From an uncultured Eubacteriales bacterium (GTDB lineage: Bacteria; Bacillota; Clostridia; Oscillospirales; Acutalibacteraceae): a DNA stretch of 49,714 bases. The stretch is taken from the NCBI GenBank assembly GCA_900320995.1, contig ONUI01000001.1, forward strand, positions 1 to 49,714. Reading direction: 5' to 3'. How positions within the stretch are numbered: position 1 is the first letter of the stretch; every line of letters starts with the position of its first letter. The notes below the pieces were generated by a model. It saw only the letters and a program-made list of their open reading frames with translations. It searched no databases and was not told where the DNA came from. This document shows positions 3,993 to 31,976 of this stretch, one piece after another. The position numbers and the translations under genes were made by a program.

Positions 3993-4453
3993 CGTTCATA
4001 CACCCCGCTTTTTCCGCCGCTTTTGTAGCTTAGACGAATGTTTTGTATCTCGATATCCCGCTGTACCGCCTTGCACATATCGTAAATAGTCAGCGCGGCG
4101 GTGCTGACAGCGGACAACGCCTCCATCTCAACGCCTGTATTGCCCTTGCATTTGACGGCGGCATGGATATGGATCTCCGTTTCGGTCAATTCAAAGGTGA
4201 TATTCACGCCGGTGAGCATCAGCGGATGGCACATCGGGATGTTATCGGAGGTTTTCTTTGCCGCCATGACGCCCGCGACCTGCGCGACCGCGAGAACGTC
4301 GCCCTTTTTGATACCGCCGCTTTTGATCAGTGCCATCGTATCAGGGTTGACGGCGACGGTACCCTCGGCGATCGCCTCGCGAAAGGTGCTGTCTTTTTCG
4401 GTCACGTCCACCATTTTGGCGCGACCCTGTTCATTGATGTGAGAGAATTCCAT
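3989..4453 (-). CDS. moaC: cyclic pyranopterin monophosphate synthase
   Basis: MVDV, KKGDVL, IPMCHP, TGVEMEAL, YDMCKA, KSGGKSG. Confidence 0.97.
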   Translation of the reverse strand: MEFSHINEQGRAKMVDVTEKDSTFREAIAEGTVAVNPDTMALIKSGGIKKGDVLAVAQVAGVMAAKKTSDNIPMCHPLMLTGVNITFELTETEIHIHAAVKCKGNTGVEMEALSAVSTAALTIYDMCKAVQRDIEIQNIRLSYKSGGKSGVYER

Positions 4454-4454
4454 C

Positions 4455-5405
4455 TTATCCTCCGATCTCGTTCATATAGCGTGCGGTGGAATCTCCTGTC
4501 AAGCCGAATCGGTGACTTTCGGGCTTTTGCAGGATACCGTTTTTGATCGCCTCTGTCAGCGCTTCACCCTGTAAGCCTCTCAGGTCGATTTCCTGATCCG
4601 AGTGCAGGCATGGTTTCAGCCTGCCGTCCGCCGTGACGCGGATCTTGTTGCATGAGGGGCAAAAGCTGTTCGACATCGGACAGATCAGCCCGATGGTGCC
4701 CTTGTGATCGGGCAGGTGATAGACCCGCGCGACGCCGTTGATCTTGAGCAGCTCGGCGTTGTGCAAATAACCCTCTATCGCCGCGGTCGTCATAAACCGA
4801 CTGCTGTCCCAGTTCTTTGCGACGCCCAACGGCATCAGCTCAATGAAGCGCACATGGATGGCGTGATCCTTGGTGAGGTTGATAAAATCATACAACTCCT
4901 TGTCGTTGATGCCTTTGAGCAGTACGGTGTTGATCTTGATATTGTCAAAGCCCGCTTTTTGCGCCGCTTTGATACCGCAGAGCACATCTTTCGGATCGCC
5001 GCCGCGGGTGATACGGCTGAATGTTTCGGGATGCATGCTGTCGAGGCTGATATTCAAGCGGTCAACGCCCGCGTCCTTCAACTCACTCGCCATCGTCGAT
5101 AAGAAAGAACCGTTGGTTGTGATACCCAGCTCGATTCCGCTGTCGATCGCTTTGATGTTGCGGCACAGAGAAATGATCCCTTTCCTGACGAGCGGTTCAC
5201 CGCCCGTTAAGCGAACCTTGCTGATACCCAGCCGGTGTGATGAGCGGACGATCTCGGTCATCTCTTCGATGCTGAGCATATCCGCGTGACTTTTCTTGCA
5301 TACGCCCTCTTCCGGCATACAGTAGATACAGCGGTAGTTGCACAGATCGGTGACGGATAGCCGCAGATATTGGATTGTTCTTCCAAAGCTGTCTTGTATG
5401 ATCAT
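4455..5405 (-). CDS. moaA: GTP 3',8-cyclase (radical SAM)
   Basis: YLRLSVTDLCNYRCIYCMP, FCxxCN..R, C-terminal IGG. Confidence 0.97.
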   Translation of the reverse strand: MIIQDSFGRTIQYLRLSVTDLCNYRCIYCMPEEGVCKKSHADMLSIEEMTEIVRSSHRLGISKVRLTGGEPLVRKGIISLCRNIKAIDSGIELGITTNGSFLSTMASELKDAGVDRLNISLDSMHPETFSRITRGGDPKDVLCGIKAAQKAGFDNIKINTVLLKGINDKELYDFINLTKDHAIHVRFIELMPLGVAKNWDSSRFMTTAAIEGYLHNAELLKINGVARVYHLPDHKGTIGLICPMSNSFCPSCNKIRVTADGRLKPCLHSDQEIDLRGLQGEALTEAIKNGILQKPESHRFGLTGDSTARYMNEIGG

Positions 5406-9678: not shown

Positions 9679-12600
9679 ATGAAAATGAGACGATTAGTTA
9701 GCTTGCTGCTGGCAGTCTTACTCGTTATGTCCTGCGTTTCCGTCGGCATTGTTGCTACCTCGGCAGCTGCTGTCGACACAGCGGATACGGCAGCGAACAT
9801 CGATGTAGCTGCTGCAGGCTCCGCATATGAGGATATGCAGAGTAAGACAACCGTCGAAAACAACTACGGTCTTTCCAAGACCGTCAACGACGGTACCATT
9901 CTGCAGGCGTGGACTTGGTCCTTCAAGAACATTGAAGCAAACCTCGAGACCATTGCGGAGCAGGGCTTTACTACCATTCAGGTATCTCCCCCCAATGAGA
10001 TCAAGAAGGGTACCAAAGGCGCTAAGTTCCTGCAGAACGACGGCCAGAACGGTTGGTGGATGTTCTATCAGCCCGCAGGCTTCCAGCTGAACAACAGCAC
10101 CGATAACGCGCTGGGCACCAAGGCTGAGTTCATTTCTCTGTGCGACAAAGCACACGAAATGGGCTTGAAGATCATTGTTGACGCGGTTATCAACCATATG
10201 GGTACTAAGGAAGGCGACGATAACAACACCTCGACCGATCCGATGTCCCATGTCACCCCCAAGGCTCAGAGCTTTGAGCCGGAGATATACAACAACAAGC
10301 TGTTCCATTCTCCTTGGGAACAGATGAAGTACATCGAGAGCGGCAGCGATACCGCGACCTCTACCTATGACCTTACCCGTAGATGCACCTCCGGTCTGCC
10401 CGACTTAAAGACAGAGGACAGCCGCGTACAGAAGGCGATCTATGATTACATGGAAGAGCTCGTACAGGCAGGCGCTGACGGCTTCCGTTTTGACGCGGCA
10501 AAGCATATCGAGACTCCCGATGATATTTCTCAGTACAGATCCGATTTCTGGACAAACACCTTAAAGAAGGTTCAGAATGCTCATACCGATAAGGAAATCT
10601 ACGCTTACGGTGAGATCCTGAACTCCTGCGGTATCGGCCGTCCCTACAGCATGTACACCAAGCTGATGGATGTTACCGATTCCAAGGGCTACTGGCAGAT
10701 CAACAACGCTGTTAAGAGCGGCGGCGCTATCGGCGAGTGGAACAACGCTACTCCCGGTTATCCCAGCTCTAACTTCACCGCGTCCAACGCGATGCTGTGG
10801 GATGAATCCCATGATACTTATGTTGACAAGTCCACTACCGACCTGAACACCACTCAGCGCGGTAAGATCTGGGCTCTGGTCGCGGGCCGTGCGGGTATCT
10901 CTTCCGTATACCTTGCTCGTCCTTCCGATAACACCAATACCAACGATCTGTACAACATCTCTATCGGTGAAGCGCGCAAGACCTCTTGGTCCAACGCTAC
11001 CACCAAGGCGATCAACCAGTTCCATAACTACTTCATCGGTCAGTCCGAGTATTGCACCAGCAACTACAGCAATACCGCTTACATTGAGAGAGGTAACTCC
11101 GGCGCGATGATCGTCAACCTCGGCGGCACCACCGCGAAGAACGTTACTCTGACCAACCACAGACTGACTCCGGGCAGCTATAAGGACGCTATCACCGGCG
11201 CTACCTTCACAGTTACCAGCTCCCAGATCAAGGGTGCGGTCGGCTCTACCGGTGTTGCGGTAATCTATGAGAACAATGAGGCTCCCAAGCCCACTGATCC
11301 TCCCAAGCCTACCGATCCGCCCGAGACCTACATCCTCGGCGACGTTGACGGCAACAAGACTGTTGATTCCATCGACGTTTCCATGATCATGCGTTCCAGC
11401 ATCAACACACAGACTCTGACCGATAAGCAGAGCCGCGCGGGTGATGTTGACGGCGACGGCTTCGTTACCGTTATCGACGCTACGCTGATCCAGCGTTATC
11501 TCGCGAATAAACCCGTCAAATATGACATTGGTAAGGAAATAACTGTACAGCCCGTACAACCCACGATTCCTCCTATTATTATCCCGACCACCGGTCCCGA
11601 TGATCCGACTGAGCCCGATCCCGATCAGGGCGGCACGATCATCTTCTCCAACAACAAGGGCTTCAGCTCTGTTAACATTTACTATTGGTCTGACGGTAAT
11701 GAGCCCATAGAGTGGCCCGGCGTTCCGATGACCTCTATCGGCATGAACGAGTACGGTGAAGAGAGATTCACCTTCGATCTGCCCGCAGGCATGACCAATT
11801 ACATCATCAACGACGGTACTCAGCAGACTGTTGACATTCCGTTCAACGGCTCTACCGGCGTTTACATGACCGATCAGGATGCTGAGGGTCATTACAATGT
11901 TGAATTCTACGATATCGACCCGAATCCCGGTCCCGGTCCCGGACCTGATCCCGATCCCGATGTTCAGGGCTCCTTCCTGCTGACCGACAACTTCGGCTGG
12001 GGCAGCGCCTATGTCTATGCTTGGGACGATGACGGCAATGAGCTCTACGGCGCATGGCCGGGTTCCGCTCAGGCTGAGACTACTCAGAATGAGTACGGCG
12101 AGACTCAGTTCAGATGCTATATCCCCAAGGGTGCTACCGGCGTTATCCTGAGCAACGGTAACGGCGAGCAGACCGAGGACATCAAGGACTTCTCCTATGA
12201 CGGTTACTGGATGGACGGCTCCAAGAATGACCAGGGTCATTACAAGGTCATCGGTTGGAACTCCGACGGTTCCGGCGGTTCTGTAGAGCCCACACCCGAT
12301 TATCCTGTCAAATCTACCTTCCTGCTGACCGACAACTTCGGTTGGGGTCAGGCATATGTCTATGCTTGGGATGCAGATGATAATAAGATCTACGGCGAAT
12401 GGCCGGGCTCCGCTATGGCAGAGACCACTCAGAACGAGTACGGCGAGACTCAGTTCAAGTGCAATGTTCCCGAGGGCGCTGTCGGCGTGATCCTGAGCAA
12501 CGGTAACGGTGCTCAGACCGAGGACATCACTGACTTTACCTATGACGGTTACTGGATGAACGGTTCCAAGAACGATCAGGGTCACTACCTCGTAACAGGT

Positions 12601-15051
12601 TGGAGAGCTGACGGTTCCGGTTCCGACGAACCCACTCCCACGCCCACTCCTACTCCCGATCCCTCCAACAGAACCATCATCTTCTCTAACAACAAGCGCA
12701 TGGGTTCTGTTAACATCTATTATTGGTCTGATTCCAGCGAGCCTGTAGAGTGGCCCGGCGTTCCGATGACCTCTATCGGTATGAACGAATACGGTGAAGA
12801 GAGATTCACCTTCGAGCTGCCCGAGGGCATGACCAACTATATCATCACCGACGGTACTACCAAGACCGTTGACATTCCGTTTACCGGCGCGACCGGCGTT
12901 TACATGACCGATCTCAACGGTGAAGGCGCATATGAAGTTGACTTCTATGATATCGGCGGCGGTTCCGGTCCGATCGATCCTCCTACACCCGTAGGTGATG
13001 ACGGTATCTATCTCGTTGGTACCTTCAGCAACTGGGAGACCTCTGCTCAGTATAAGATGAGCGAGAACTCCGCGAACCCCGGCGAGTACATGATCTCTAC
13101 CACCCTTTCCGAGGGCGACGGCGTCAAGGTCGTTAAGGTAGAGAACGGTAATAGCACATGGTATCCCGACGGCATGGATAACGAGTACACTGTTGACGCG
13201 GCTCACGCAGGCAATGTCACCGTTTACTTCAATGCAAGCGGCAATGCTGAGTGGAGCGCGTTCGGCGGCTACATGTACATCGATAACGGCGGTTATACTC
13301 CCGATCCTCAGCAGCCCACTCAGGGCGGCGGTACGGTTAACCCCGACGTTACCGACAGAACCATCATCTTCTCTAACAACAAGGGCTTCAGCACCGTCAA
13401 CATCTATTACTGGTCTGATGAAAGCGAGCCCGTAGATTGGCCCGGCGTTCCGATGACCTCTATCGGTATGAACGAGTACGGTGAAGAGAGATTCACCTTC
13501 GAGATGCCCGCGGGCATGACCAACTACATCATCAACGACGGTGAACAGCAGACTGTTGACATTCCGTTCACCGGCGCTACCGGCGTATACATGACCGAAA
13601 AGGACGGCACCGGCAACTATGAGGTAGCCTTCTATGATATCGGCGGCGGTCAGATCATTCCGACTCCCGATCCGACTTCCGGTCCCATTGATCCGACTCC
13701 TGTCGGAGATGACGGCGTCTATCTCGTAGGCACCTTCAGCGGCTGGGAAACCGATGCTCAGTATAAGATGAGCGAGAATCCCGGCGCACCCGGCGAGTAC
13801 ATGCTCTCTACCACTCTCAGCGAGGGTGACGGCGTTAAGGTCGTTAAGGTAGAAAACGGCGTCCAGACATGGTATCCGGACGGCACCGATAATGAGTACG
13901 TCGTTGACGCGGCTCACGCAGGCAGCGTAACCGTATACTTCAACGCGGCAGGTAATGCTGAGTGGAGTGCGTTCGGCGGCTACATGTACATCGATAACGG
14001 CTCGACTCCTACTCCCGATCCCGATCCCACAACCGCTCCTGTTGATCCGACTCCTGTCGGTGATGACGGCGTCTATCTCGTAGGCACCTTCAGCAGCTGG
14101 GAAACCTCCGCTCAGTATAAGATGAGCGAGAACTCTGCCGCTCCCGGTGAGTATATGCTCTCTACCACTCTCAGCGAGGGTGACGGCGTTAAGGTCGTTA
14201 AGGTAGAAAACGGAGTTGCGACTTGGTATCCGGACGGTACCGATAACGAGTACGTTGTTGACGCGGCTCACGCAGGTAATGTCACCGTATACTTCAACGC
14301 GGCAGGCAATGCTGAGTGGAGCGCGTTCGGCGGCTACATGTACATCGATAACGGTTCGACTCCTGTTGATCCGACTCAGCCTGTTACTCCCGATCCCGAG
14401 CCTTCCGACAGAACCATCATCTTCTCCAATAATAAGGGCTTCAGCACCGTTAACATTTATTATTGGTCTGATTCCAGCGAGCCTGTAGAGTGGCCCGGCG
14501 TTCCGATGACTTACTACGATACCAACGAAATGGGCGAACAGAGGTATTCATTCGAGATGCCCGCCGGCATGACCAACTACATCATCAACGACGGTACACA
14601 GCAGACCGTTGACATTCCGTTCACCGGCGCTACAGGCGTTTACATGACAGATAAGAATACTTCGGGTAATTATATGGTTGATTTCTATGACATCAGCAAC
14701 ATAGAACCCAACCCCAATCCTAATCCTAATCCCGATCCGACTCCGAGCGACAAGGATGTTACCTTCGAGCCCGGCGAAGCGAGTGCTTCTGATCCCGCAT
14801 GGTTCGCTTGGGTTTGGAACGATAATTCCGAAGGCACCTGGATCAAGGGTACTGCTTCCGGCTCCAACGTTGTTTTCTCCGGTGCGGCTGATTACGGCAA
14901 CATTCTTGTCGTAAGAATGAAAACCGGCTCTGAATCCGCTGATTGGGATACCTGTTGGAACCAATCCGAGGATATGAAGATGCAGTCAGGAAAAACTCTT
15001 TGCTTCAAAGCATGGGGCAGCGGTAAAGTGTTTAGCGTTGAATGGAAATAA
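9679..15051 (+). CDS. secreted multimodular GH13 alpha-amylase with dockerin and repeated starch-binding-type modules
   Basis: signal peptide; DAVINH, GFRFDAAKH, YGE, ESHD catalytic regions; duplicated GDVDG dockerin; CBM26-like YYW..WPG repeats with Pro/Thr linkers. Confidence 0.93.
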   Translation: MKMRRLVSLLLAVLLVMSCVSVGIVATSAAAVDTADTAANIDVAAAGSAYEDMQSKTTVENNYGLSKTVNDGTILQAWTWSFKNIEANLETIAEQGFTTIQVSPPNEIKKGTKGAKFLQNDGQNGWWMFYQPAGFQLNNSTDNALGTKAEFISLCDKAHEMGLKIIVDAVINHMGTKEGDDNNTSTDPMSHVTPKAQSFEPEIYNNKLFHSPWEQMKYIESGSDTATSTYDLTRRCTSGLPDLKTEDSRVQKAIYDYMEELVQAGADGFRFDAAKHIETPDDISQYRSDFWTNTLKKVQNAHTDKEIYAYGEILNSCGIGRPYSMYTKLMDVTDSKGYWQINNAVKSGGAIGEWNNATPGYPSSNFTASNAMLWDESHDTYVDKSTTDLNTTQRGKIWALVAGRAGISSVYLARPSDNTNTNDLYNISIGEARKTSWSNATTKAINQFHNYFIGQSEYCTSNYSNTAYIERGNSGAMIVNLGGTTAKNVTLTNHRLTPGSYKDAITGATFTVTSSQIKGAVGSTGVAVIYENNEAPKPTDPPKPTDPPETYILGDVDGNKTVDSIDVSMIMRSSINTQTLTDKQSRAGDVDGDGFVTVIDATLIQRYLANKPVKYDIGKEITVQPVQPTIPPIIIPTTGPDDPTEPDPDQGGTIIFSNNKGFSSVNIYYWSDGNEPIEWPGVPMTSIGMNEYGEERFTFDLPAGMTNYIINDGTQQTVDIPFNGSTGVYMTDQDAEGHYNVEFYDIDPNPGPGPGPDPDPDVQGSFLLTDNFGWGSAYVYAWDDDGNELYGAWPGSAQAETTQNEYGETQFRCYIPKGATGVILSNGNGEQTEDIKDFSYDGYWMDGSKNDQGHYKVIGWNSDGSGGSVEPTPDYPVKSTFLLTDNFGWGQAYVYAWDADDNKIYGEWPGSAMAETTQNEYGETQFKCNVPEGAVGVILSNGNGAQTEDITDFTYDGYWMNGSKNDQGHYLVTGWRADGSGSDEPTPTPTPTPDPSNRTIIFSNNKRMGSVNIYYWSDSSEPVEWPGVPMTSIGMNEYGEERFTFELPEGMTNYIITDGTTKTVDIPFTGATGVYMTDLNGEGAYEVDFYDIGGGSGPIDPPTPVGDDGIYLVGTFSNWETSAQYKMSENSANPGEYMISTTLSEGDGVKVVKVENGNSTWYPDGMDNEYTVDAAHAGNVTVYFNASGNAEWSAFGGYMYIDNGGYTPDPQQPTQGGGTVNPDVTDRTIIFSNNKGFSTVNIYYWSDESEPVDWPGVPMTSIGMNEYGEERFTFEMPAGMTNYIINDGEQQTVDIPFTGATGVYMTEKDGTGNYEVAFYDIGGGQIIPTPDPTSGPIDPTPVGDDGVYLVGTFSGWETDAQYKMSENPGAPGEYMLSTTLSEGDGVKVVKVENGVQTWYPDGTDNEYVVDAAHAGSVTVYFNAAGNAEWSAFGGYMYIDNGSTPTPDPDPTTAPVDPTPVGDDGVYLVGTFSSWETSAQYKMSENSAAPGEYMLSTTLSEGDGVKVVKVENGVATWYPDGTDNEYVVDAAHAGNVTVYFNAAGNAEWSAFGGYMYIDNGSTPVDPTQPVTPDPEPSDRTIIFSNNKGFSTVNIYYWSDSSEPVEWPGVPMTYYDTNEMGEQRYSFEMPAGMTNYIINDGTQQTVDIPFTGATGVYMTDKNTSGNYMVDFYDISNIEPNPNPNPNPDPTPSDKDVTFEPGEASASDPAWFAWVWNDNSEGTWIKGTASGSNVVFSGAADYGNILVVRMKTGSESADWDTCWNQSEDMKMQSGKTLCFKAWGSGKVFSVEWK

Positions 15052-16484: not shown

Positions 16485-17804
16485 TTATGTATGGATACCG
16501 ATTTTCTTACGGTTATCGATGACCCTGACAGCCTTGCCCTCGCTGCGCGCAATCGACTTCGGCGCGACCAGACGGATGACGGGATTGATGCCGAGCATCT
16601 CTTTCATCGCACTCTGGATCTTTTTCTCCTTCTTGGTGATGACCTGCGGCTTATCGGAGAAATCCTCGGGAAGCATTTCTACACGGATCTCGAAGGTGTC
16701 GGTATTATTTACACGGTCGATCAGGATCTGGTAGTTCGGCGCGTAGCCCTTGTTCAGGAGAACTGCCTCGATCTGGCTGGGGAAGACGTTGACGCCGCGG
16801 ATGATCATCATGTCATCGGAACGTCCCATCGGCTTGTGCATACGGATAAAGGTTCTGCCGCAGGAGCATTTCTCGCGGGTGAGAACGGTGATGTCGCGGG
16901 TGCGGTAACGGATCAGCGGGAACGCCTCTTTGTCGAGCGAGGTGAATACCAATTCACCCTTACTGCCCTCGGGAAGCACCTCACCGGTGTCGGGATCGAT
17001 GATCTCGGCATAGAAGTGATCCTCGTTGATGTGCATACCGTTCTGCTCACAGCATTCAAAAGCCACGCCGGGGCCGCTGGACTCAGTCAGACCGTAGATG
17101 TCATACGCCTTGATACCGAGGCTGTTCTCGATGTCGTGACGCATTTCTTCTGTCCACGGCTCCGCGCCGAAGATACCTGCCTTGAGGCTGTTGTAGCCGG
17201 GCTTGTAGCCCTGTTCCTTCAGCGTCTCGCCGATATAAGCAGCATAGGAGGGCGTACAGCAGAGGATGCTGGCGTTGAGATCCATCATGAACTGGATCTG
17301 ACGATTGGTGTTGCCGCTCGACATGGGCAGGGTCAGACAGCCAACCTTATGTGAGCCGCCGTGCAGACCCGCGCCGCCGGTGAACAGTCCGTAACCGTAG
17401 GCGACCTGTACGACGTCGCCTTTGTCGCCGCCTGCCGCGACGATCGCTCGCGCACAGCAGTCTTCCCACATATCGACGTCATTCTGGGTGTAGAACGCGA
17501 CAACGCGCTTGCCGGTGGTACCGGAGGTGGAGTGGATACGTACACAGTTTTTGAGGTCGGTCGCGAGCATTCCGTAGGGATATGCTTCTCGCAGATCGTT
17601 TTTGCTCAGGAACGGCAGCTTGCTGATATCCTCCAGACAGGTGATATCCTCAGGCTTGACGCCCTTTTCATCCATCAGCTTGCGGTAATACTCAACGTGT
17701 TCATACACATAGCGCACCTGACGGATGAGCTTGTACTCCTGCAGCTTTTTGATCTCGTTGACCGGCATGGTCTCAGCTTCGGGCTGATAGAATCTTTTCT
17801 GCAT
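16485..17804 (-). CDS. paaK: phenylacetate-CoA ligase family protein (copy 1)
   Basis: RIHSTSGTTG, YGYGLFTGG, YGLTE, RYRTRD, GRSDDM, GVNVFPSQIE. Confidence 0.9.
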   Translation of the reverse strand: MQKRFYQPEAETMPVNEIKKLQEYKLIRQVRYVYEHVEYYRKLMDEKGVKPEDITCLEDISKLPFLSKNDLREAYPYGMLATDLKNCVRIHSTSGTTGKRVVAFYTQNDVDMWEDCCARAIVAAGGDKGDVVQVAYGYGLFTGGAGLHGGSHKVGCLTLPMSSGNTNRQIQFMMDLNASILCCTPSYAAYIGETLKEQGYKPGYNSLKAGIFGAEPWTEEMRHDIENSLGIKAYDIYGLTESSGPGVAFECCEQNGMHINEDHFYAEIIDPDTGEVLPEGSKGELVFTSLDKEAFPLIRYRTRDITVLTREKCSCGRTFIRMHKPMGRSDDMMIIRGVNVFPSQIEAVLLNKGYAPNYQILIDRVNNTDTFEIRVEMLPEDFSDKPQVITKKEKKIQSAMKEMLGINPVIRLVAPKSIARSEGKAVRVIDNRKKIGIHT

Positions 17805-20468: not shown

Positions 20469-21770
20469 TCACTCGTTCCTCAGGTCAACGATCCTCTTCG
20501 CCTTACCCTGGAATCTCTCAAGCGTCTTGGGAGCTACCAGCGTGACCTTGGTTCTCAGACCTAAGATCGACTGTAATTTAGCCTCGATGCGCTTTTTGAG
20601 TCCGTCGAGCATCTTATAATTATCGAGCAGAGACTCGTTGATGACCTCGACCTTGATCTCCAAGCTGTCACGGTAATTCTGGCGGGTGATGTACAGCATG
20701 TAGTGCGGCGCGATATCGGGGATGTTGATCAGGATGTTCTCGATCTGGGTCGGGAACACGTTGACGCCCTTGATGATCAGCATATCGTCGGTTCTGCCCA
20801 TGGTCTTTGCCATTCTGCAATGGGTTCTGCCGCAGGAGCAGGGCTGATAATCGAGCTTGGTGATATCCTTGGTGCGGTATCTGAGCACCGGCATACCCTT
20901 GCGGGTCAAGGTAGTGACGACCAGCTCGCCGACTTCGCCCTCGCTGAGACGCTTGCCGGTATCGGTGTCGATGATCTCGGGCAGGAAGTGATCCTCCGCA
21001 AAGTGCATACCGTCGCGCGCTTCACAGTCACCGGAAACGCCGGGGCCGCCGAGCTCGGTCATGCCGTAGTTGTCGGATACACGAATGTTGAAGTTGTTCT
21101 CGATCTGCTCGCGCATGGATACGGTGCAGGGCTCTGAGCCTAAGATGCCCAGACGCAGGCTGTAATCCGAAAGCGGATAGCCGGCTTCCTTCATCGCCTC
21201 GGAGAGATACAGCGCGTAGGACGGTGTGGCTACGATACCGGTCACGCCCCAGTCACGCAGCATCATCAACTGCTTCTGCGTATTGCCCGAAGAAGCGGGG
21301 ATGACGGTCGCGCCGAGCTTTTCCATGCCGTAGTGCAGACCCAAAGCGCCGGTGAACAGTCCGTAACCGAAGCTGATCTGGATGATATCATCGGGAGTGA
21401 CGCCGCCCGCACAAGCGACACGCGCGACACAATCCGACCAGATGTCGAGATCCTCTTTGGTATAAACGCCGGTGGTGGGCTTACCGGTCGTACCCGAAGA
21501 AGCGTGGATACGCACGATGTCCTTCATGTCGGAGGCTACCAGACCGAAGGGATAGTTATCTCTGAAATCGTCCTTGGTGGTGAAGGGGATGTATTCGATA
21601 TCGGAGAGTTGCTTGATCTTAGCGCCGTCGAGCACGCCGCAGTCGGTCAGACGCTGATGATACAGCGGTACGTTGTCATAGCAGTACTTGACGACCCATT
21701 TCAGGCGCTCGAGCTGAATCGCTTCGATTTCTTTTCTCGGTAGAGTTTCAATGTCTTTCTGAAAAATCAT
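20469..21770 (-). CDS. paaK: phenylacetate-CoA ligase family protein (copy 2)
   Basis: RIHASSGTTGKP, FGYGLFTGA, YGMTE, RYRTKD, GVNVFPTQIE; start at MIFQK. Confidence 0.9.
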   Translation of the reverse strand: MIFQKDIETLPRKEIEAIQLERLKWVVKYCYDNVPLYHQRLTDCGVLDGAKIKQLSDIEYIPFTTKDDFRDNYPFGLVASDMKDIVRIHASSGTTGKPTTGVYTKEDLDIWSDCVARVACAGGVTPDDIIQISFGYGLFTGALGLHYGMEKLGATVIPASSGNTQKQLMMLRDWGVTGIVATPSYALYLSEAMKEAGYPLSDYSLRLGILGSEPCTVSMREQIENNFNIRVSDNYGMTELGGPGVSGDCEARDGMHFAEDHFLPEIIDTDTGKRLSEGEVGELVVTTLTRKGMPVLRYRTKDITKLDYQPCSCGRTHCRMAKTMGRTDDMLIIKGVNVFPTQIENILINIPDIAPHYMLYITRQNYRDSLEIKVEVINESLLDNYKMLDGLKKRIEAKLQSILGLRTKVTLVAPKTLERFQGKAKRIVDLRNE

Positions 21771-24543: not shown

Positions 24544-24757
24544 TATCGTAAAGGCATGATTTGAATATCATCCTGTGGTAATCTCTTTTGATCGTCATTG
24601 CGAAGGCATGACATATTGTCTTGCCTGTGGCGATCTCTTATCCTTTTGATCGTCATTGCGAAGGCATGACATATTGTCTTGCCTGTGGTGATCTCTTATC
24701 CTTTTGATCGTCATTGCGAAGGCATGACATATTGTCTTGCCTGTGGCAATCTCAACC
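24544..24757 (+). repeat. tandem array of family A elements, 58-bp period (3 copies plus 1 degenerate)
   Basis: CGTCATTGCGAAGGCATGACATATTGTCTTGCCTGTGG at 24593, 24651, 24709. Confidence 0.92.
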
Positions 24758-24779
24758 TTATCAAAAATGCAACGGATTC

Positions 24780-26977: not shown

Positions 26978-29230
26978 ATGAAACGGTTGTTGGCACAGAT
27001 AGGCATTACCTACTTTTCTGTGCTGGCAGCCGCTTTTTATTTGCCTGATACCGCGGTAGTTGTGATCGGCGGTATTGCCGCGGTCCTGACGATCTTGTTC
27101 TTTGTGATACGAAAAACCCGCAGGACGATCTATATTCCCTTGATGGCGCTGACTGTCGTGATCGCCTGTGCGGTACATATCGGATACGGACTGTTGGCGG
27201 TACAGCCTGTGGTCGAAACTTACGGTGATGAAACACATACCGTGAAAGCGGTGCTGACCGAGGAGCCTTATCAGTCGTATTCCAAGCATTATTACCGTCT
27301 GAAAGCGCAGGAGATCGATGGGGAAAAGGCGGGGTTCAAGCTGTTGCTCAAAACACCGACCGACATCGAAGCGGAACCGGATGACATCCTGACTTTTACT
27401 TCCGAGTTGAAGGTGATGGATAATCAGTATTACCGCGCCAAAGGCTATTATCTGGTGTCGGACGATTACAGGATCGAAGTAGAAACGGAAACGCCCGATA
27501 CACATTCGCTCTACTATCATGCGATACATCTGCGGCGATTCATGAGAAAATCACTGGACACACTCCTGCCGTCCGATTGCGCCGCGCTGTGCAGAGCGGT
27601 GTTGATCGGTGATAAGTACGCGCTGAGCCTCGATACCAGAGATCATTTCCGCTACGCAGGCGCGTCATATTTTATCGTGGTATCGGGTATGCACTTCGCG
27701 GTGGTCATCATGCTGCTCTTCCGTTTGATGAAACGCCTCAACCGCTGGGTGAGATTTGCGCTGATCATGGCGTTTATCGTATTGTACGCTGCGGTGACAG
27801 GCTTTCAGTCCTCCGTACTGCGTGCCGGGATCATGATGGTGTTCACCGTGTTCGGCATGACGATACGACGGCAGCCGTATCCATTGAATCATTTAGGATT
27901 AGCCGGCATCATCATGCCGTTCATCGTATCACCTTACGGCGCGGGCGACGTCGGTCTGATCCTCTCGTTTTACGCGACGATGGGTATCTTGCTGTGGGCA
28001 AGACCGCTATTGCCGAAGCTGTGTCTGAAAACAAAGACCGGTTATATCCCGTTCTTTCATATCAGCGAGAAGCTGCACTATTATAAAGAGCGAAAAGTTG
28101 AAGGGCTTCCGCTGAAAGATAAATCCAAAGAACCGTTTTCGTTCCGCATCCTGTTGATGAAGCTGTGGAACAGCGCGGCGGCTTTGCTCTCTGTCAGCCT
28201 TGCCGCCAATATCATGGTGTTCCCGATATCGGTATTCATCTTCCACGAATTCTCTTTGGTCACATTGCTGTCCGCGCTTTTGCTGTATGCGGAGATCTAT
28301 TTGATCCTCGTTTTATCATTGGCGGTATGTATCCTGTATCCGCTGGGGTTTTTACGCTATGTCGCCATATTGCTCGCCTATCCCTTGATGTGGTTGTGTA
28401 AGCTGGTGTTGTGGCTGGTGGACGGGATCGCGTCCTTGCCGTTTGCGCATTTTCGTGTCGGGCAGGCGTTTATTTACGCGTGGCTGGCGGTCACCGTGAT
28501 CTTGGGGATCGTCGTCATCCTGTACCGCAATCATTATCGCTATCTGAAATACGCGGTACTGTGTTCGCTGATCATACTGCTCGGCGGCGGTTTGACCCAG
28601 CAAGTGTTGCAGATGAACACTTTTTCGCTCGAGGTCTATTCCTGCGACAACGGGCTGTGCGCGGGAATCAATAAGGGCGGCAAGCTGTATCTTTTACAGA
28701 TGGACGCGAACTCAAAACAGCTGTATGCATTATGGGATCAGCTTTCCTCCCGATACGGATCCGCGGAGGTCGCACTATGCTGTAACGAGAACGAAATCAG
28801 GCATTTTCAGCTGTATCGTGATGATGAATTTGCAATTTCCGCACTTTTGCTGTATGATAAGGAGCAGAAATATCAAAACGAAGCAAACATCGTCCCGTTT
28901 GACAAGGACTGTACCTATGTCGTGGATGATGACGTCGTGATCCGACTGTCTGTTGTCAACTACACCGCCGTGCCGTATATTACGGCAGGTGAGCGGAGGA
29001 TATTGATCATCCCGGCGGGGTGTGAGATCGATAACATCCCGAAGGAGCTGCGCACAGCGGATGTGATCCTTCTGTCCCAAGCGCAGCAGGGATATGACCA
29101 ACTGCGGTGCGAGGACATGATCATCAGCGATAACAGCGATCTGTCGATGCTTTCCGCAAACGCGCTCATGGACAGTTATCATCATGCGTTTTTTACCGAT
29201 CATGGCGATGTGCATTATCGGTTGAGGTAG
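26978..29230 (+). CDS. comEC: ComEC/Rec2 competence membrane protein
   Basis: VVSGMH, SVLRA, GLILSF; position upstream of holA. Confidence 0.85.
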   Translation: MKRLLAQIGITYFSVLAAAFYLPDTAVVVIGGIAAVLTILFFVIRKTRRTIYIPLMALTVVIACAVHIGYGLLAVQPVVETYGDETHTVKAVLTEEPYQSYSKHYYRLKAQEIDGEKAGFKLLLKTPTDIEAEPDDILTFTSELKVMDNQYYRAKGYYLVSDDYRIEVETETPDTHSLYYHAIHLRRFMRKSLDTLLPSDCAALCRAVLIGDKYALSLDTRDHFRYAGASYFIVVSGMHFAVVIMLLFRLMKRLNRWVRFALIMAFIVLYAAVTGFQSSVLRAGIMMVFTVFGMTIRRQPYPLNHLGLAGIIMPFIVSPYGAGDVGLILSFYATMGILLWARPLLPKLCLKTKTGYIPFFHISEKLHYYKERKVEGLPLKDKSKEPFSFRILLMKLWNSAAALLSVSLAANIMVFPISVFIFHEFSLVTLLSALLLYAEIYLILVLSLAVCILYPLGFLRYVAILLAYPLMWLCKLVLWLVDGIASLPFAHFRVGQAFIYAWLAVTVILGIVVILYRNHYRYLKYAVLCSLIILLGGGLTQQVLQMNTFSLEVYSCDNGLCAGINKGGKLYLLQMDANSKQLYALWDQLSSRYGSAEVALCCNENEIRHFQLYRDDEFAISALLLYDKEQKYQNEANIVPFDKDCTYVVDDDVVIRLSVVNYTAVPYITAGERRILIIPAGCEIDNIPKELRTADVILLSQAQQGYDQLRCEDMIISDNSDLSMLSANALMDSYHHAFFTDHGDVHYRLR

Positions 29231-29233
29231 ATT

Positions 29234-30280
29234 ATGGTTACAGAAAGTCAACTGAAAAAACAACTGAACAGCGGACAGATCAGCAATCTGTATCTTTGCT
29301 TCGGTGAAGAAAAGATGCTCGTCAAGCGCTGCGCTCAGTTGATCGAAAACAAAATATCCGGCGGCGATCTCAACGAATTCAACTATCACGTGTTCGACAG
29401 TGACGCGGATCTCAGCGATATCTCCGTCTGTGCCGATATGATCCCCTTTATGAGCGAGTGGAACATCCTGCGCGTCAACGATATGGATATCGATAAGCTC
29501 ACAAAGGGCGACTTTGACGCGCTGATGAAGATCATCAAGAACGCGTCGGGTCAGACGGTCATCATCATCGCCATGCCGACGTTGGAGGTCACCGCGAAAT
29601 CGGCGAAAAAGCAGTTCAAGCAGGTGATCAACCATATCGATAAAAACGGCGTTTGTATCGAGCTCGGTCATCGAACGGGTTTGATGCTCGAGCGTGACCT
29701 GTGTAAATGGGCAAAGGCGGGCGGATGCTCCATGAGCGAGCTGACCGCTCATGCGCTTATCCAATACGCAGGCGAGGATCTGAACCGCCTGAATGCAGAG
29801 ATGAAGAAGCTGACGGCATACGCCGACGGCGATGAGATCACACCCGAGATGATCGAGCTGTTGGTGTCAAAAACCGCCGAGGCGAGTGTATATGATCTGT
29901 TCGGGCTGATCGTCGAGGGCAAGACCGACAAGGCGCTGTCCGCCATCGATGCGCTGTTTTATCAGCAGGTCAGCGGCGTCTATATCGCTACGGTGCTGTC
30001 GGGCGCGTATCTCGACGCTTACCGCGCGCGGATCGGCAGTGAAGCCGGCAAGCCCAATGCCGTTGTAGCGGAGGATTTCGGCTATAACAGACGCGCGTGG
30101 GTGCTGGATAAGCTCGGCAGACAGATCCGCCGTGTCACCACCGCTTCTCTCAGGCGCAGTATCGACGAGCTGCTCGCCATGCAGACGCGCATGGTGACCG
30201 AAACGGTCGACGAGCGCACAGAGATCGAACGACTGGTATGCAATCTGATACTGATCGCGGGGGATCGCTCCGATGAGTGA
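29234..30280 (+). CDS. holA: DNA polymerase III delta subunit
   Basis: LYLCFGEE, EMKKL..Y, VYDL; comEC-holA synteny. Confidence 0.88.
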   Translation: MVTESQLKKQLNSGQISNLYLCFGEEKMLVKRCAQLIENKISGGDLNEFNYHVFDSDADLSDISVCADMIPFMSEWNILRVNDMDIDKLTKGDFDALMKIIKNASGQTVIIIAMPTLEVTAKSAKKQFKQVINHIDKNGVCIELGHRTGLMLERDLCKWAKAGGCSMSELTAHALIQYAGEDLNRLNAEMKKLTAYADGDEITPEMIELLVSKTAEASVYDLFGLIVEGKTDKALSAIDALFYQQVSGVYIATVLSGAYLDAYRARIGSEAGKPNAVVAEDFGYNRRAWVLDKLGRQIRRVTTASLRRSIDELLAMQTRMVTETVDERTEIERLVCNLILIAGDRSDE

Positions 30281-31094
30281 TAACAGAATACCTAACGATA
30301 TACAAAGGCTCCCTTTCCTAAGGGAGCTGTCTGCGGAGCAGACTGAGGGTTCTATACCGTCTGATCAAAAAATCAAAATAAAAGAAACCGTGATCGTTGA
30401 AGGGCGTTATGATCGGATCAAACTCAGTGAGCTGATCGCAAGCCCAATGATCGAGACAGGTGGTTTTCGGGTGTTCAAGGATAAGGAAAAACAGGAGCTG
30501 ATCCGTGCCGTCGCCAAACACAGAGGGATCCTTGTGATGACCGATGTGGATTCCGCGGGCTTTGTGATCCGCAACTTTCTGCGCGGTATTGTGCCGCAGG
30601 GGCAGATCCTGCACGCCTATATCCCGACGATCAAAGGAAAAGAAAAGCGCAAGCCCGAGGCGTCCAAGGAGGGTATCCTCGGCGTGGAGGGCATCGACCG
30701 TGACGCGCTGATTGCATCCATCCGCAACAGCGGCGCGCACATCCTGAATTGTCATTGCGAGGAGCCGACGGGTACGTCCGCGGCGCGGCAATCTCAACCG
30801 CAAAATTGTCATTGCGAGGAGCATACTGCGACGTGGCAATCTCAACCGATTATCGAGCCTCCCTTTCCTAAGGGAGGTGGCGCGGAGCGCCGGAGGGTTG
30901 ATACATCATCCGAAATCACAAAAATGGATTTCTTCGACTACGGGCTTTCCGGCTGCGCGAATGCCGCGCAAAACAGGGAAGAGGTGCTCGCTTCATTGGG
31001 TCTGCCGAAATACCTTTCCTCAAACGCCATGCTCGCCGCGATGAATTGTCTGTTCACCAAAGAAGAATTTGAACAGTATCTTTCACAACTATAA
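30273..31094 (+). CDS. rnmV: TOPRIM/DUF4093 RNase M5-like protein carrying in-frame palindromic inserts
   Basis: IVEGRYD, TDVDSAG, LGVEG, C-terminal IT..D...GL.G..R...LG; repeats at 30307-30350 and 30750-30900. Confidence 0.8.
   Translation: MSDNRIPNDIQRLPFLRELSAEQTEGSIPSDQKIKIKETVIVEGRYDRIKLSELIASPMIETGGFRVFKDKEKQELIRAVAKHRGILVMTDVDSAGFVIRNFLRGIVPQGQILHAYIPTIKGKEKRKPEASKEGILGVEGIDRDALIASIRNSGAHILNCHCEEPTGTSAARQSQPQNCHCEEHTATWQSQPIIEPPFPKGGGAERRRVDTSSEITKMDFFDYGLSGCANAAQNREEVLASLGLPKYLSSNAMLAAMNCLFTKEEFEQYLSQL
30307..30350 (+). repeat. family C element inside 5' end of RNase M5-like CDS
   Basis: GGCTCCCTTTCCTAAGGGAGCTGTCTGCGGAGCAGACTGAGGGT. Confidence 0.85.
30750..30900 (+). repeat. A+A+C mosaic inside RNase M5-like CDS
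   Basis: A at 30750-30800 and 30807-30849, C at 30857-30900; reading frame stays open. Confidence 0.9.
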
Positions 31095-31096
31095 AA

Positions 31097-31186
31097 TGTC
31101 ATTGCGAGGAGAAGTATTTGACGCGGCAATCTCAACCGCAAAATTGTCATTGCGAGGAGCGTTCTGCGACGTGGCAATCTCAACCG
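31097..31186 (+). repeat. family A doublet
   Basis: two copies joined by the same CAACCGCAAAATTGTC linker as the intragenic doublet. Confidence 0.9.
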
Positions 31187-31189
31187 AAT

Positions 31190-31220
31190 AAAAAAAGGCT
31201 GTTCACACGAACAGCCTTTC
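31190..31220. terminator. bidirectional terminator
   Basis: AAAGGCTGTTC-ACAC-GAACAGCCTTT. Confidence 0.8.
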
Positions 31221-31241
31221 ATTTTGCTTATTTACAGTTCC

Positions 31242-31976
31242 TTATTCCGCGTCTTCCCAGTTATGCCAGACATTCTGGATATCGTCGTTATCCTCGAACA
31301 TATCCAGCATTTTCTGCATCTGAACCTGAGTATCGGGATCGTCGATCTTGGTGTAGGTGGAGGGAACCTGCTCGATCTCGGCGGACGCGAATTCATAGCC
31401 CTGTGCCTGCAGATCGTCACGTACCGCGCCGAAATCCTCGGGCTCGGTATAGATGGTGAAGATGTCCTCATCCGCTTCAAAATCAGCGGCGCCCGCTTCC
31501 AGAGCGGCTTCCATCACGGTGTCCTCATCCTTTTCGAGATCCTCGCGCTCGATGATCAGTACGCCCTTCTTGGCGAACATGAAGCCGACGCAGCCGGGGG
31601 TACCCATGTTGCCGCCGAACTTGTCAAAATAATGTCTGACTTCACCCGCGGTACGATTGCGGTTGTCGGTCAGCGCTTCTACGATAACGGCAACGCCGCA
31701 GGGACCGTAGCCCTCGTAGGTGACAGCCTCATAATCGGCAGCCTCGCCGCCCTGAGCCTTCTTGATGATACGCTCGATATTATCGTTCGGTACATTCGCC
31801 GCCTTCGCCTTAGCGATACAATCTCTGAGCTTGGAGTTGACGTTCGGGTCGGCACTGCCGCCGTCGCGGATCGCTACCATCAACTCTCTGCCGATCTTGG
31901 TGAATACCTTTGCGCGGGCAGCGTCGTTCTTACCCTTTTTCTGCTTGATCGTGCTCCATTTATTATGTCCTGACAT
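31242..31976 (-). CDS. yebC: YebC/PmpR family protein
   Basis: [29 protein letters not shown]. Confidence 0.96.

Follow-up and report, generated by a model that had tools for sequence, protein, structure and literature searches.

In-frame hairpin repeats in the linker and N terminus of an RNase M5-like protein of ruminant-gut Ruminococcus, and small enzymes that may spread them

Among the CGTC- and GTAG-tagged REPs of bacteria, some copies lie in frame inside housekeeping genes, double inserts occur, and a neutral location in linkers has been proposed (Di Nocera 2013, PMC3733652). In the portion of that paper available to us, recurrence of a REP at the same site is described only for recB of two Xanthomonas species, CGTC REPs are said to have no dedicated enzyme, and the Rickettsia palindromic elements RPE-4 and RPE-6 are counted as CGTC REPs (PMC3733652). 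In-frame REPs are therefore already known, and the basic phenomenon is not new. The NTS associated with Ssn nucleases are rarely found within genes (2%), and the words "intragenic" and "in-frame" are absent from the available text of their description (PMC11893778). BoxC/TMECO motifs have been linked to local genetic variability in the available part of Holder 2015 (PMC4666352). No description of the repeats reported here, in Ruminococcus or in rnmV, came up in a literature search in which the sources were available in part. An earlier note on this DNA had offered Rickettsia palindromic elements as precedent, which holds insofar as RPE-4 and RPE-6 are CGTC REPs, but CGTC/GTAG REPs, Ssn-related motifs and BoxC are closer counterparts.

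Repeats in and beside an rnmV-like gene

The window, that is, the whole stretch of 49,714 nt analyzed here, is contig C124 of a 2.24-Mb assembly (hereafter G000; 87% complete, 7.4% contamination). A sheep gut metagenome contains DNA near-identical to it, close relatives in the databases are Ruminococcus sp. or uncultured Clostridia, and the clade in which the insertions described below recur is ruminant-gut Ruminococcus. Features of the locus are collected in Table 1. Several other parts of the window are also repetitive or duplicated: direct repeats of ~300-350 nt, 75-90% alike and separated by Pro/Thr-rich short repeats, occupy 11283-14733, whose product resembles a surface or scaffold protein of several modules, and two regions 3972 nt apart and ~75% alike (16767-17413 and 20739-21385) are probably paralogous genes. 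A comEC-like competence gene (26978-29230) lies upstream of holA-rnmV and would be relevant if transformation carries cassettes.

Table 1. Features of the rnmV-like locus, and genes of the same genome that carry in-frame repeats
Feature	Position	Strand	Remarks
holA (DNA polymerase III delta)	29234..30280	+	upstream; stop overlaps rnmV-like start
rnmV-like ORF (RNase M5: Toprim + DUF4093)	30273..31094	+	273 aa, open; start overlaps holA stop
N-terminal extension	30273..30380	+	36 aa vs 6-7 in un-inserted orthologues; pLDDT 50-59
Family C (BoxC/triplex-like double hairpin), N-terminal	30307..30351	+	in frame as RLPFLRELSAEQTEG
Toprim domain	30375..30743	+	invariant E43, D91, D93; without inserts
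Inter-domain linker	30744..30914	+	57 aa vs 10-13 in repeat-poor relatives
Family A copy 1 (HGTC-tagged, Ssn-associated type)	30750..30799	+	
Family A copy 2	30807..30847	+	starts 57 nt after copy 1 start
Family C linker copy	30857..30899	+	in frame as PPFPKGGGAERRRV
DUF4093 C-terminal domain	30915..31091	+	profile match and predicted structure
Intergenic family A doublet	31097..31185	+	units start at 31097 and 31145; shares junction and loop type with intragenic doublet
yebC/TACO1 gene	31242..31976	-	downstream, convergent
In-frame repeat genes of G000			C250 pyrG, C233 ksgA, C70 aroC, C154 metH, C49 CoA activase, C62 ABC

RNase M5 (RnmV) cleaves pre-5S rRNA on the 50S subunit. The rnmV-like protein of G000 matches PF13331 (DUF4093) at aa 209-269 in a Pfam profile search (59.2 bits) and TIGR00334 at aa 35-154, there with a score of 55.9 bits that is below the cut-off of 110.65. 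A profile search also returned the RNase M5 structure 6tpq (E 1e-15), and the best Foldseek matches of the predicted model are 6z2b, 6tg6 and 6tpq, all RNase M5 structures. With these the protein has in common the Toprim fold, the VEG and DxD acidic residues and a C-terminal DUF4093; it differs in a linker that is 47 aa longer, in a 30-aa N-terminal extension and in its score under the TIGR00334 cut-off. The insert site corresponds to the NTD-CTD junction of the solved RNase M5, just after the crystallized Toprim fragment. In the AlphaFold model, pLDDT exceeds 90 over most of both domains and is 37-51 in the linker blocks, and the inserts are predicted to be disordered.

Two repeat families are found in the gene. 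Family A consists of an unpaired HGTC tag, a stem-loop and an unpaired tail and has many intergenic copies, as do CGTC-tagged REPs; its hairpin is imperfect and, with z from -0.09 to -0.73, folds weakly. In family C a double hairpin is evident (z -3.6 and -3.8), with a three-block Y-R-R layout, CCTCCCT / AGGGAGG / GGAGGG. Strict patterns recovered 256 family A, 120 family C and 110 GTAG copies from the G000 genome and none from any of three dinucleotide shuffles of it, so the repeats are not a product of chance (a loose A pattern, with 30-39 matches in the shuffles, was replaced by the strict one). Crude gene calls leave 192 of the 256 family A copies outside genes. Within the window, the intergenic stretch 24585-24758 holds three 58-nt family-A units head-to-tail, 90-100% alike.

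The earlier note had described two family A elements 57 nt apart and one family C element read through without a stop between Toprim and DUF4093, and this is what the open reading frame contains. Its figure of about 15 aa added near the N terminus is right for the C element itself, but the total gain is ~29-30 aa (36 vs 6-7 residues before KETVIVEG); likewise, the doublet that it called near-identical after the stop agrees with the intragenic one in its second unit and junction (96% over 69 nt) but not in the first units, which have different loops. The doublet junction, CTCAACCGCAAAAT, occurs at two sites in the 2.24-Mb assembly, 30793 and 31131, and nowhere else. In G000 the second A unit also has a loop type restricted to the rnmV locus, suggesting that sequence was copied or converted locally between gene and 3' region. 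The downstream doublet is likely a local copy or conversion partner of the intragenic doublet.

Recurrence across orthologues and in other genes

All 29 complete close rnmV genes are open; the linker is short in 11 (10-11 aa; 10 aa in G077) and longer in 18 (15-57 aa), counts from which G156 was left out as its contig ends inside the gene. A, C or GTAG repeats can be recognized in 13 of the 18 longer linkers. They form an A-A-C or A-C arrangement in G000, G089 and G019, a longer C subtype in G209, G049, G063 and G165, a GTAG repeat in G137, G053, G177 and G066, and composites in which C is nested inside A in G065 and G170. By arithmetic, the 38-aa linker of G019 equals 10 + 14 + 14, and the 57 aa of G000 add a 19-aa unit, a net gain of 47 aa. 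More distant genes have linkers of 10-13 aa in 21 of 24 cases, the other three being unparsed. The shorter proteins that the earlier note had expected are thus found (linkers of 10-13 aa, N termini of 6-7 aa), and its proposal that mobile palindromes have inserted, with the frame kept, into a gene for rRNA maturation in a Firmicute stands, the repeats being absent from most orthologues.

In a wider set of 120 database sequences, biased towards the query, 114 linkers could be parsed; forward repeat peptides are present in 77 of these, in 32 types at 65% identity, and none of the 114 contains a reverse-orientation repeat peptide. As read from these alignments, the Toprim-DUF4093 linker is a hot spot across the clade, used by three families and ~32 cassette types. 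The 5' end of rnmV is a second hot spot: an insert is in frame there in G000, G019, G049, G063, G065 and G066, while in G089, G209, G137 and G053 a C element disrupts the original start, which was coupled to holA, and brings in with its tail a new ATG 89-90 nt downstream, beside the core. Of 222 genomes in the genus, 29 contain the exact A pattern, mostly members of one subclade. Tandem A spacing in the G000 genome is divisible by 3 in only 16 of 42 cases, indicating that the open frame is selected rather than built in.

In-frame repeats are also present in pyrG, ksgA and aroC (30 genomes compared) and in metH, a CoA-activase gene and an ABC ATPase gene (5 genomes each). There are 42 mid-ORF repeat matches in G000, and 18 long ORFs were scanned, with Pfam domains in 11 and none in 7; orthologues were compared for the six genes above. 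Others with repeats are mutL, ftsK, a radical SAM gene and an HATPase ORF, in some of which the repeat is perhaps upstream of the true start. Repeats were seen in the G000 ORFs C108 (mutL) and C57 (ftsK) as well, and G000 contains three pyrG matches. The picture of several in-frame insertions is thereby retained, but "two families in one gene" is too narrow, with three families across the clade, cassettes that are replaced and reassorted, and other housekeeping genes affected too.

The same spot can receive unlike repeats in these genes also. Three different inserts (two A phases, one C) lie at the same few codons of pyrG, two different inserts at one spot of aroC, and the metH linker carries A in G000 and C in three other genomes. 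At the pyrG and aroC insert sites the repeats have taken the place of a few host codons, and no clear target duplication was seen. Recognizable inserts at one locus share an orientation, which is forward in rnmV, pyrG and aroC and reverse in metH, so that reverse peptides are tolerated elsewhere. Genome-wide in G000, repeat clusters at least 2 kb apart have the same orientation in 55 cases to 28 (p=0.004), and in 27 to 13 across families; this modest bias fits strand-linked insertion, which is inseparable from gene direction here.

Small enzyme genes between inverted repeats, and apparent cassette exchange

In G000, two of the three GIY-YIG matches sit between inverted family A copies (C108:4697-5112, with the gene at 4788-5075, and C104:1639-2083, with the gene at 1730-2014), and all three DUF559 matches between inverted C-type hairpins, each of its own subtype (C134:4145-4613, with the gene at 4239-4559, C265:502-819, C238:8808-9249; the upstream copy at C265 was read by eye from the flank). 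Across the genus, a GIY-YIG gene of 95-96 aa has inverted A copies on both sides at 13 of 23 loci and on one side at four, as read by eye from the flanking sequence; the remaining six are without A and mostly have other TGTCAT hairpins. These loci lie at different genomic sites and adjoin what we take, from the N termini, to be the starts of mutS-, mutL- and purB-like genes. One GIY-YIG gene is 100% identical in G000, G156 and G209, though their housekeeping genes differ. The 95-96-aa protein occurs in 14 of 29 A-positive vs 5 of 193 A-negative genomes, among which kin are not independent, and the query found no match in 15 of the 29 A-positive genomes, including G089 and G019, all in a set of incomplete MAGs. 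An NCBIfam search with it gave no informative match. The two ~95-aa GIY-YIG genes of G000 are candidate new Ssn nucleases.

C-type hairpins lie beside DUF559 genes on at least one side at 24 of 30 loci and on both sides at 10 of 30, compared with 4 of 656 control windows, using a flank pattern that was relaxed after a first, stricter scan (both sides 3/30, either side 8/30), with the control added. For the GTAG repeats the counterpart is a Y1 HUH transposase protein of the RAYT type: in G089 (C60) its reading frame contains two inverted GTAG repeats, and in G137 it is flanked by them, both proteins scoring under the Pfam cut-off. The RAYT homologue of G000 is partial only (C137:7178-7502), the PF01797 profile finds nothing in G000, and strong PF01797 matches in G019 and G065 are without GTAG flanks. 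Each of the three families flanks its own small enzyme gene, whose product likely spreads the repeat: an Ssn-like GIY-YIG protein for A, DUF559 for C and RAYT for GTAG.

We consider it probable that the inserts are gene-less hairpin repeats in frame in the predicted-disordered linker and the N terminus of a conserved RNase M5-like protein, likely neutral passengers and likely spread by the flanking nucleases. This reading builds on what is directly observed, namely the identity of the repeats, the kept frame, the conserved domains, the position of repeats at the flanks of nuclease genes, the repeated use of one site, the nesting of one repeat in another, and the local doublet with the 3' region. 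The nucleases would act on single-stranded hairpins, insertions out of frame or elsewhere in the gene would be purged, and a linker once seeded may keep changing as more repeats insert, local stretches are duplicated or converted, and alleles pass between species.

The repeats could instead be tolerated passengers for whose spread host recombination, slippage and gene conversion suffice, with the nuclease genes as hitchhikers or, like Neisseria SsnA, as restrictors of incoming DNA. The doublet common to the gene and its 3' region is consistent with this, as are the missing target duplications and the many repeat-rich genomes without a GIY-YIG match, and the available part of its description demonstrates ssDNA cleavage by SsnA, not transposition (PMC11893778). 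However, inverted copies of each family border the family's own enzyme gene at several unrelated sites, and the first landings in pyrG and aroC need an insertion step since these genes lack homology to the repeat. We judge spread by recombination alone to be unlikely.

The gene tree does not predict linker type: G019 has A-C in common with G000 and G089 yet groups with G137 and G053, and G209 and G049 share a C cassette. Trees built on parts of single genes are short and resolve poorly. Between G000/G089 and G019 the A-C cassette is ~96% identical and its flanks 88% and 79%, and G000-type sites reach only ~25 nt into DUF4093. N-terminal and linker cassettes occur among homologues in reassorted combinations, some of which may be assembly chimeras. 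Between G000/G089/G209 and the other four genomes, identity of the DUF4093 half is 73-80%, compared with 85-93% for five other genes or gene parts, and for one of 28 non-independent pairs the divergence of DUF4093 between the two subgroups is 45/168 vs 42/363 differences (p=2.5e-5). Together, these observations make recombination likely. The ksgA insert common to G137 and G000 is 85-87% identical, like its flanks, which fits an old insertion followed by loss rather than transfer. The pyrG DNA of the otherwise distant G019 and G205 is 99-100% identical, reflecting either very recent transfer or bin contamination, and a gene exchanged or mis-binned as a whole is uninformative on its insert.

A bolder idea, tentative and in our view rather doubtful, is that the linker is a self-renewing cassette slot, in which three nuclease-repeat systems nest and cleavage of the repeats drives short-tract, homing-like exchange of cassettes between species, with DUF559 as the missing BoxC-type mobilizer. 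Its hints are the A-C cassette being more alike than its flanks, the reassorted cassette combinations, and the unusual divergence of the DUF4093 half, on both sides of which repeats lie.

Fate of the inserts and comparison with known systems

An improbable alternative is that the gene is decaying or is translated without its inserts, the open frame being incidental. RNase M5 is dispensable in Bacillus subtilis, and damaged alleles exist: one 97-aa protein that begins in the linker, on a 56-kb contig, looks like a split allele (P0122), another contains a compensated frameshift (P0040), and five are truncated (P0102, P0123-P0126), a picture that contig ends could also give. The 5' insert need not be translated in the four genomes with a new ATG beside the core. 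Against decay, dN/dS among eight insert-bearing genomes is 0.03-0.11 for Toprim (28 pairs) and 0.05-0.17 for DUF4093 (25 of the 28 pairs computable), values (~0.03-0.17) at which, by codon comparison, both domains are under purifying selection. E43, D91 and D93 are unchanged across 53 sequences, all 29 close genes are open, and DUF4093 is present in 116 of 120 homologues matched by a Toprim-only query. G000 itself has no in-frame ATG, GTG or TTG between the N-terminal C element and V40. From sequence the protein looks alive.

Domestication of the inserts into a new Cys/His module that binds metal or RNA is very improbable, even though several species retain the A-C cassette, which between G000 and G019 is better conserved than its flanks. 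At least 32 unrelated cassettes occupy the site, many of them without Cys/His, the segment is predicted to be disordered, and the cassette pN/pS of ~0.3-0.7, on very few changes, is above that of the core. The His-Cys pair is encoded by the DNA tag GTCATTGCG, and the first Cys of the insert varies (C, G, R, S or D context). The Cys/His content, as read from the repeats, follows from the DNA consensus, and nothing points to a new function; the weight that the earlier note had given to it is not borne out, most orthologues having other inserts or none.

That mis-assembly copied the downstream doublet into the gene merits practically no credence: the junction is confined to the gene and the downstream doublet, and the rnmV locus is not covered end to end by any one contig, but contigs from a study other than that of the best holder carry the inserts (two X2 contigs, over 30306-30884 and 30855-31733, show 2 differences and 17 differences plus 1 gap, respectively), and these, together with the recurrence of the layout in G089, P0002 and P0003, refute it. 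The sister species G089 has the identical A-A-C linker layout with a GTAG repeat after the stop instead of the A doublet, and P0002 and P0003 share the 57-aa linker layout. Two further contigs, considered as RNA evidence, match 30793-30925 with 4 differences (X16) and only the Toprim part (X17); they were set aside, since such contigs show neither strand nor transcription.

Taken together, this locus is an unusually dense natural record of selfish repeats adding sequence to a conserved enzyme, with dozens of independent in-frame cassettes and empty alleles for comparison. Three repeat families are tied to three small enzymes in one Firmicute clade, and the DUF559-hairpin pair, which a limited search did not find in print, and the A-type system are candidate new sequence-specific ssDNA nucleases that bear on the spread of CGTC and BoxC repeats. 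The rnmV inserts work like RPE/REP insertion; apparently new are the three-nuclease picture, the cassettes seemingly shuffled between species, the mixture of three families, and the density of the repeats.

Family C shares with the BoxC/PIT/TMECO triplex motif a pyrimidine block, a short loop, a complementary purine block and a third purine block (Holder 2015, PMC4666352). Its second loop, however, is a hairpin of 14-30 nt, not 3 nt, and whereas the available text describes TMECO as always intergenic in E. coli MG1655 and without a link to mobile elements, family C occurs in frame and flanks DUF559 genes (PMC4666352). The A-type system is reminiscent of Ssn with its NTS/SRM, in that a single-domain GIY-YIG gene of ~95 aa lies between inverted HGTC-tagged hairpins and hundreds of copies are gene-less, but the degenerate SRM pattern, as given in the available part of the publication, matches none of 319 loosely defined family A copies (Chenal 2025, PMC11893778). 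With CGTC/GTAG REPs the repeats have in common an HGTC or GTAG tag, a short stem-loop, an unpaired tail, a mostly intergenic location and clusters of 43-82 aa; in contrast to these, for which the available text names no Firmicutes, a single site here has taken up ~32 cassette types from three families (PMC3733652).
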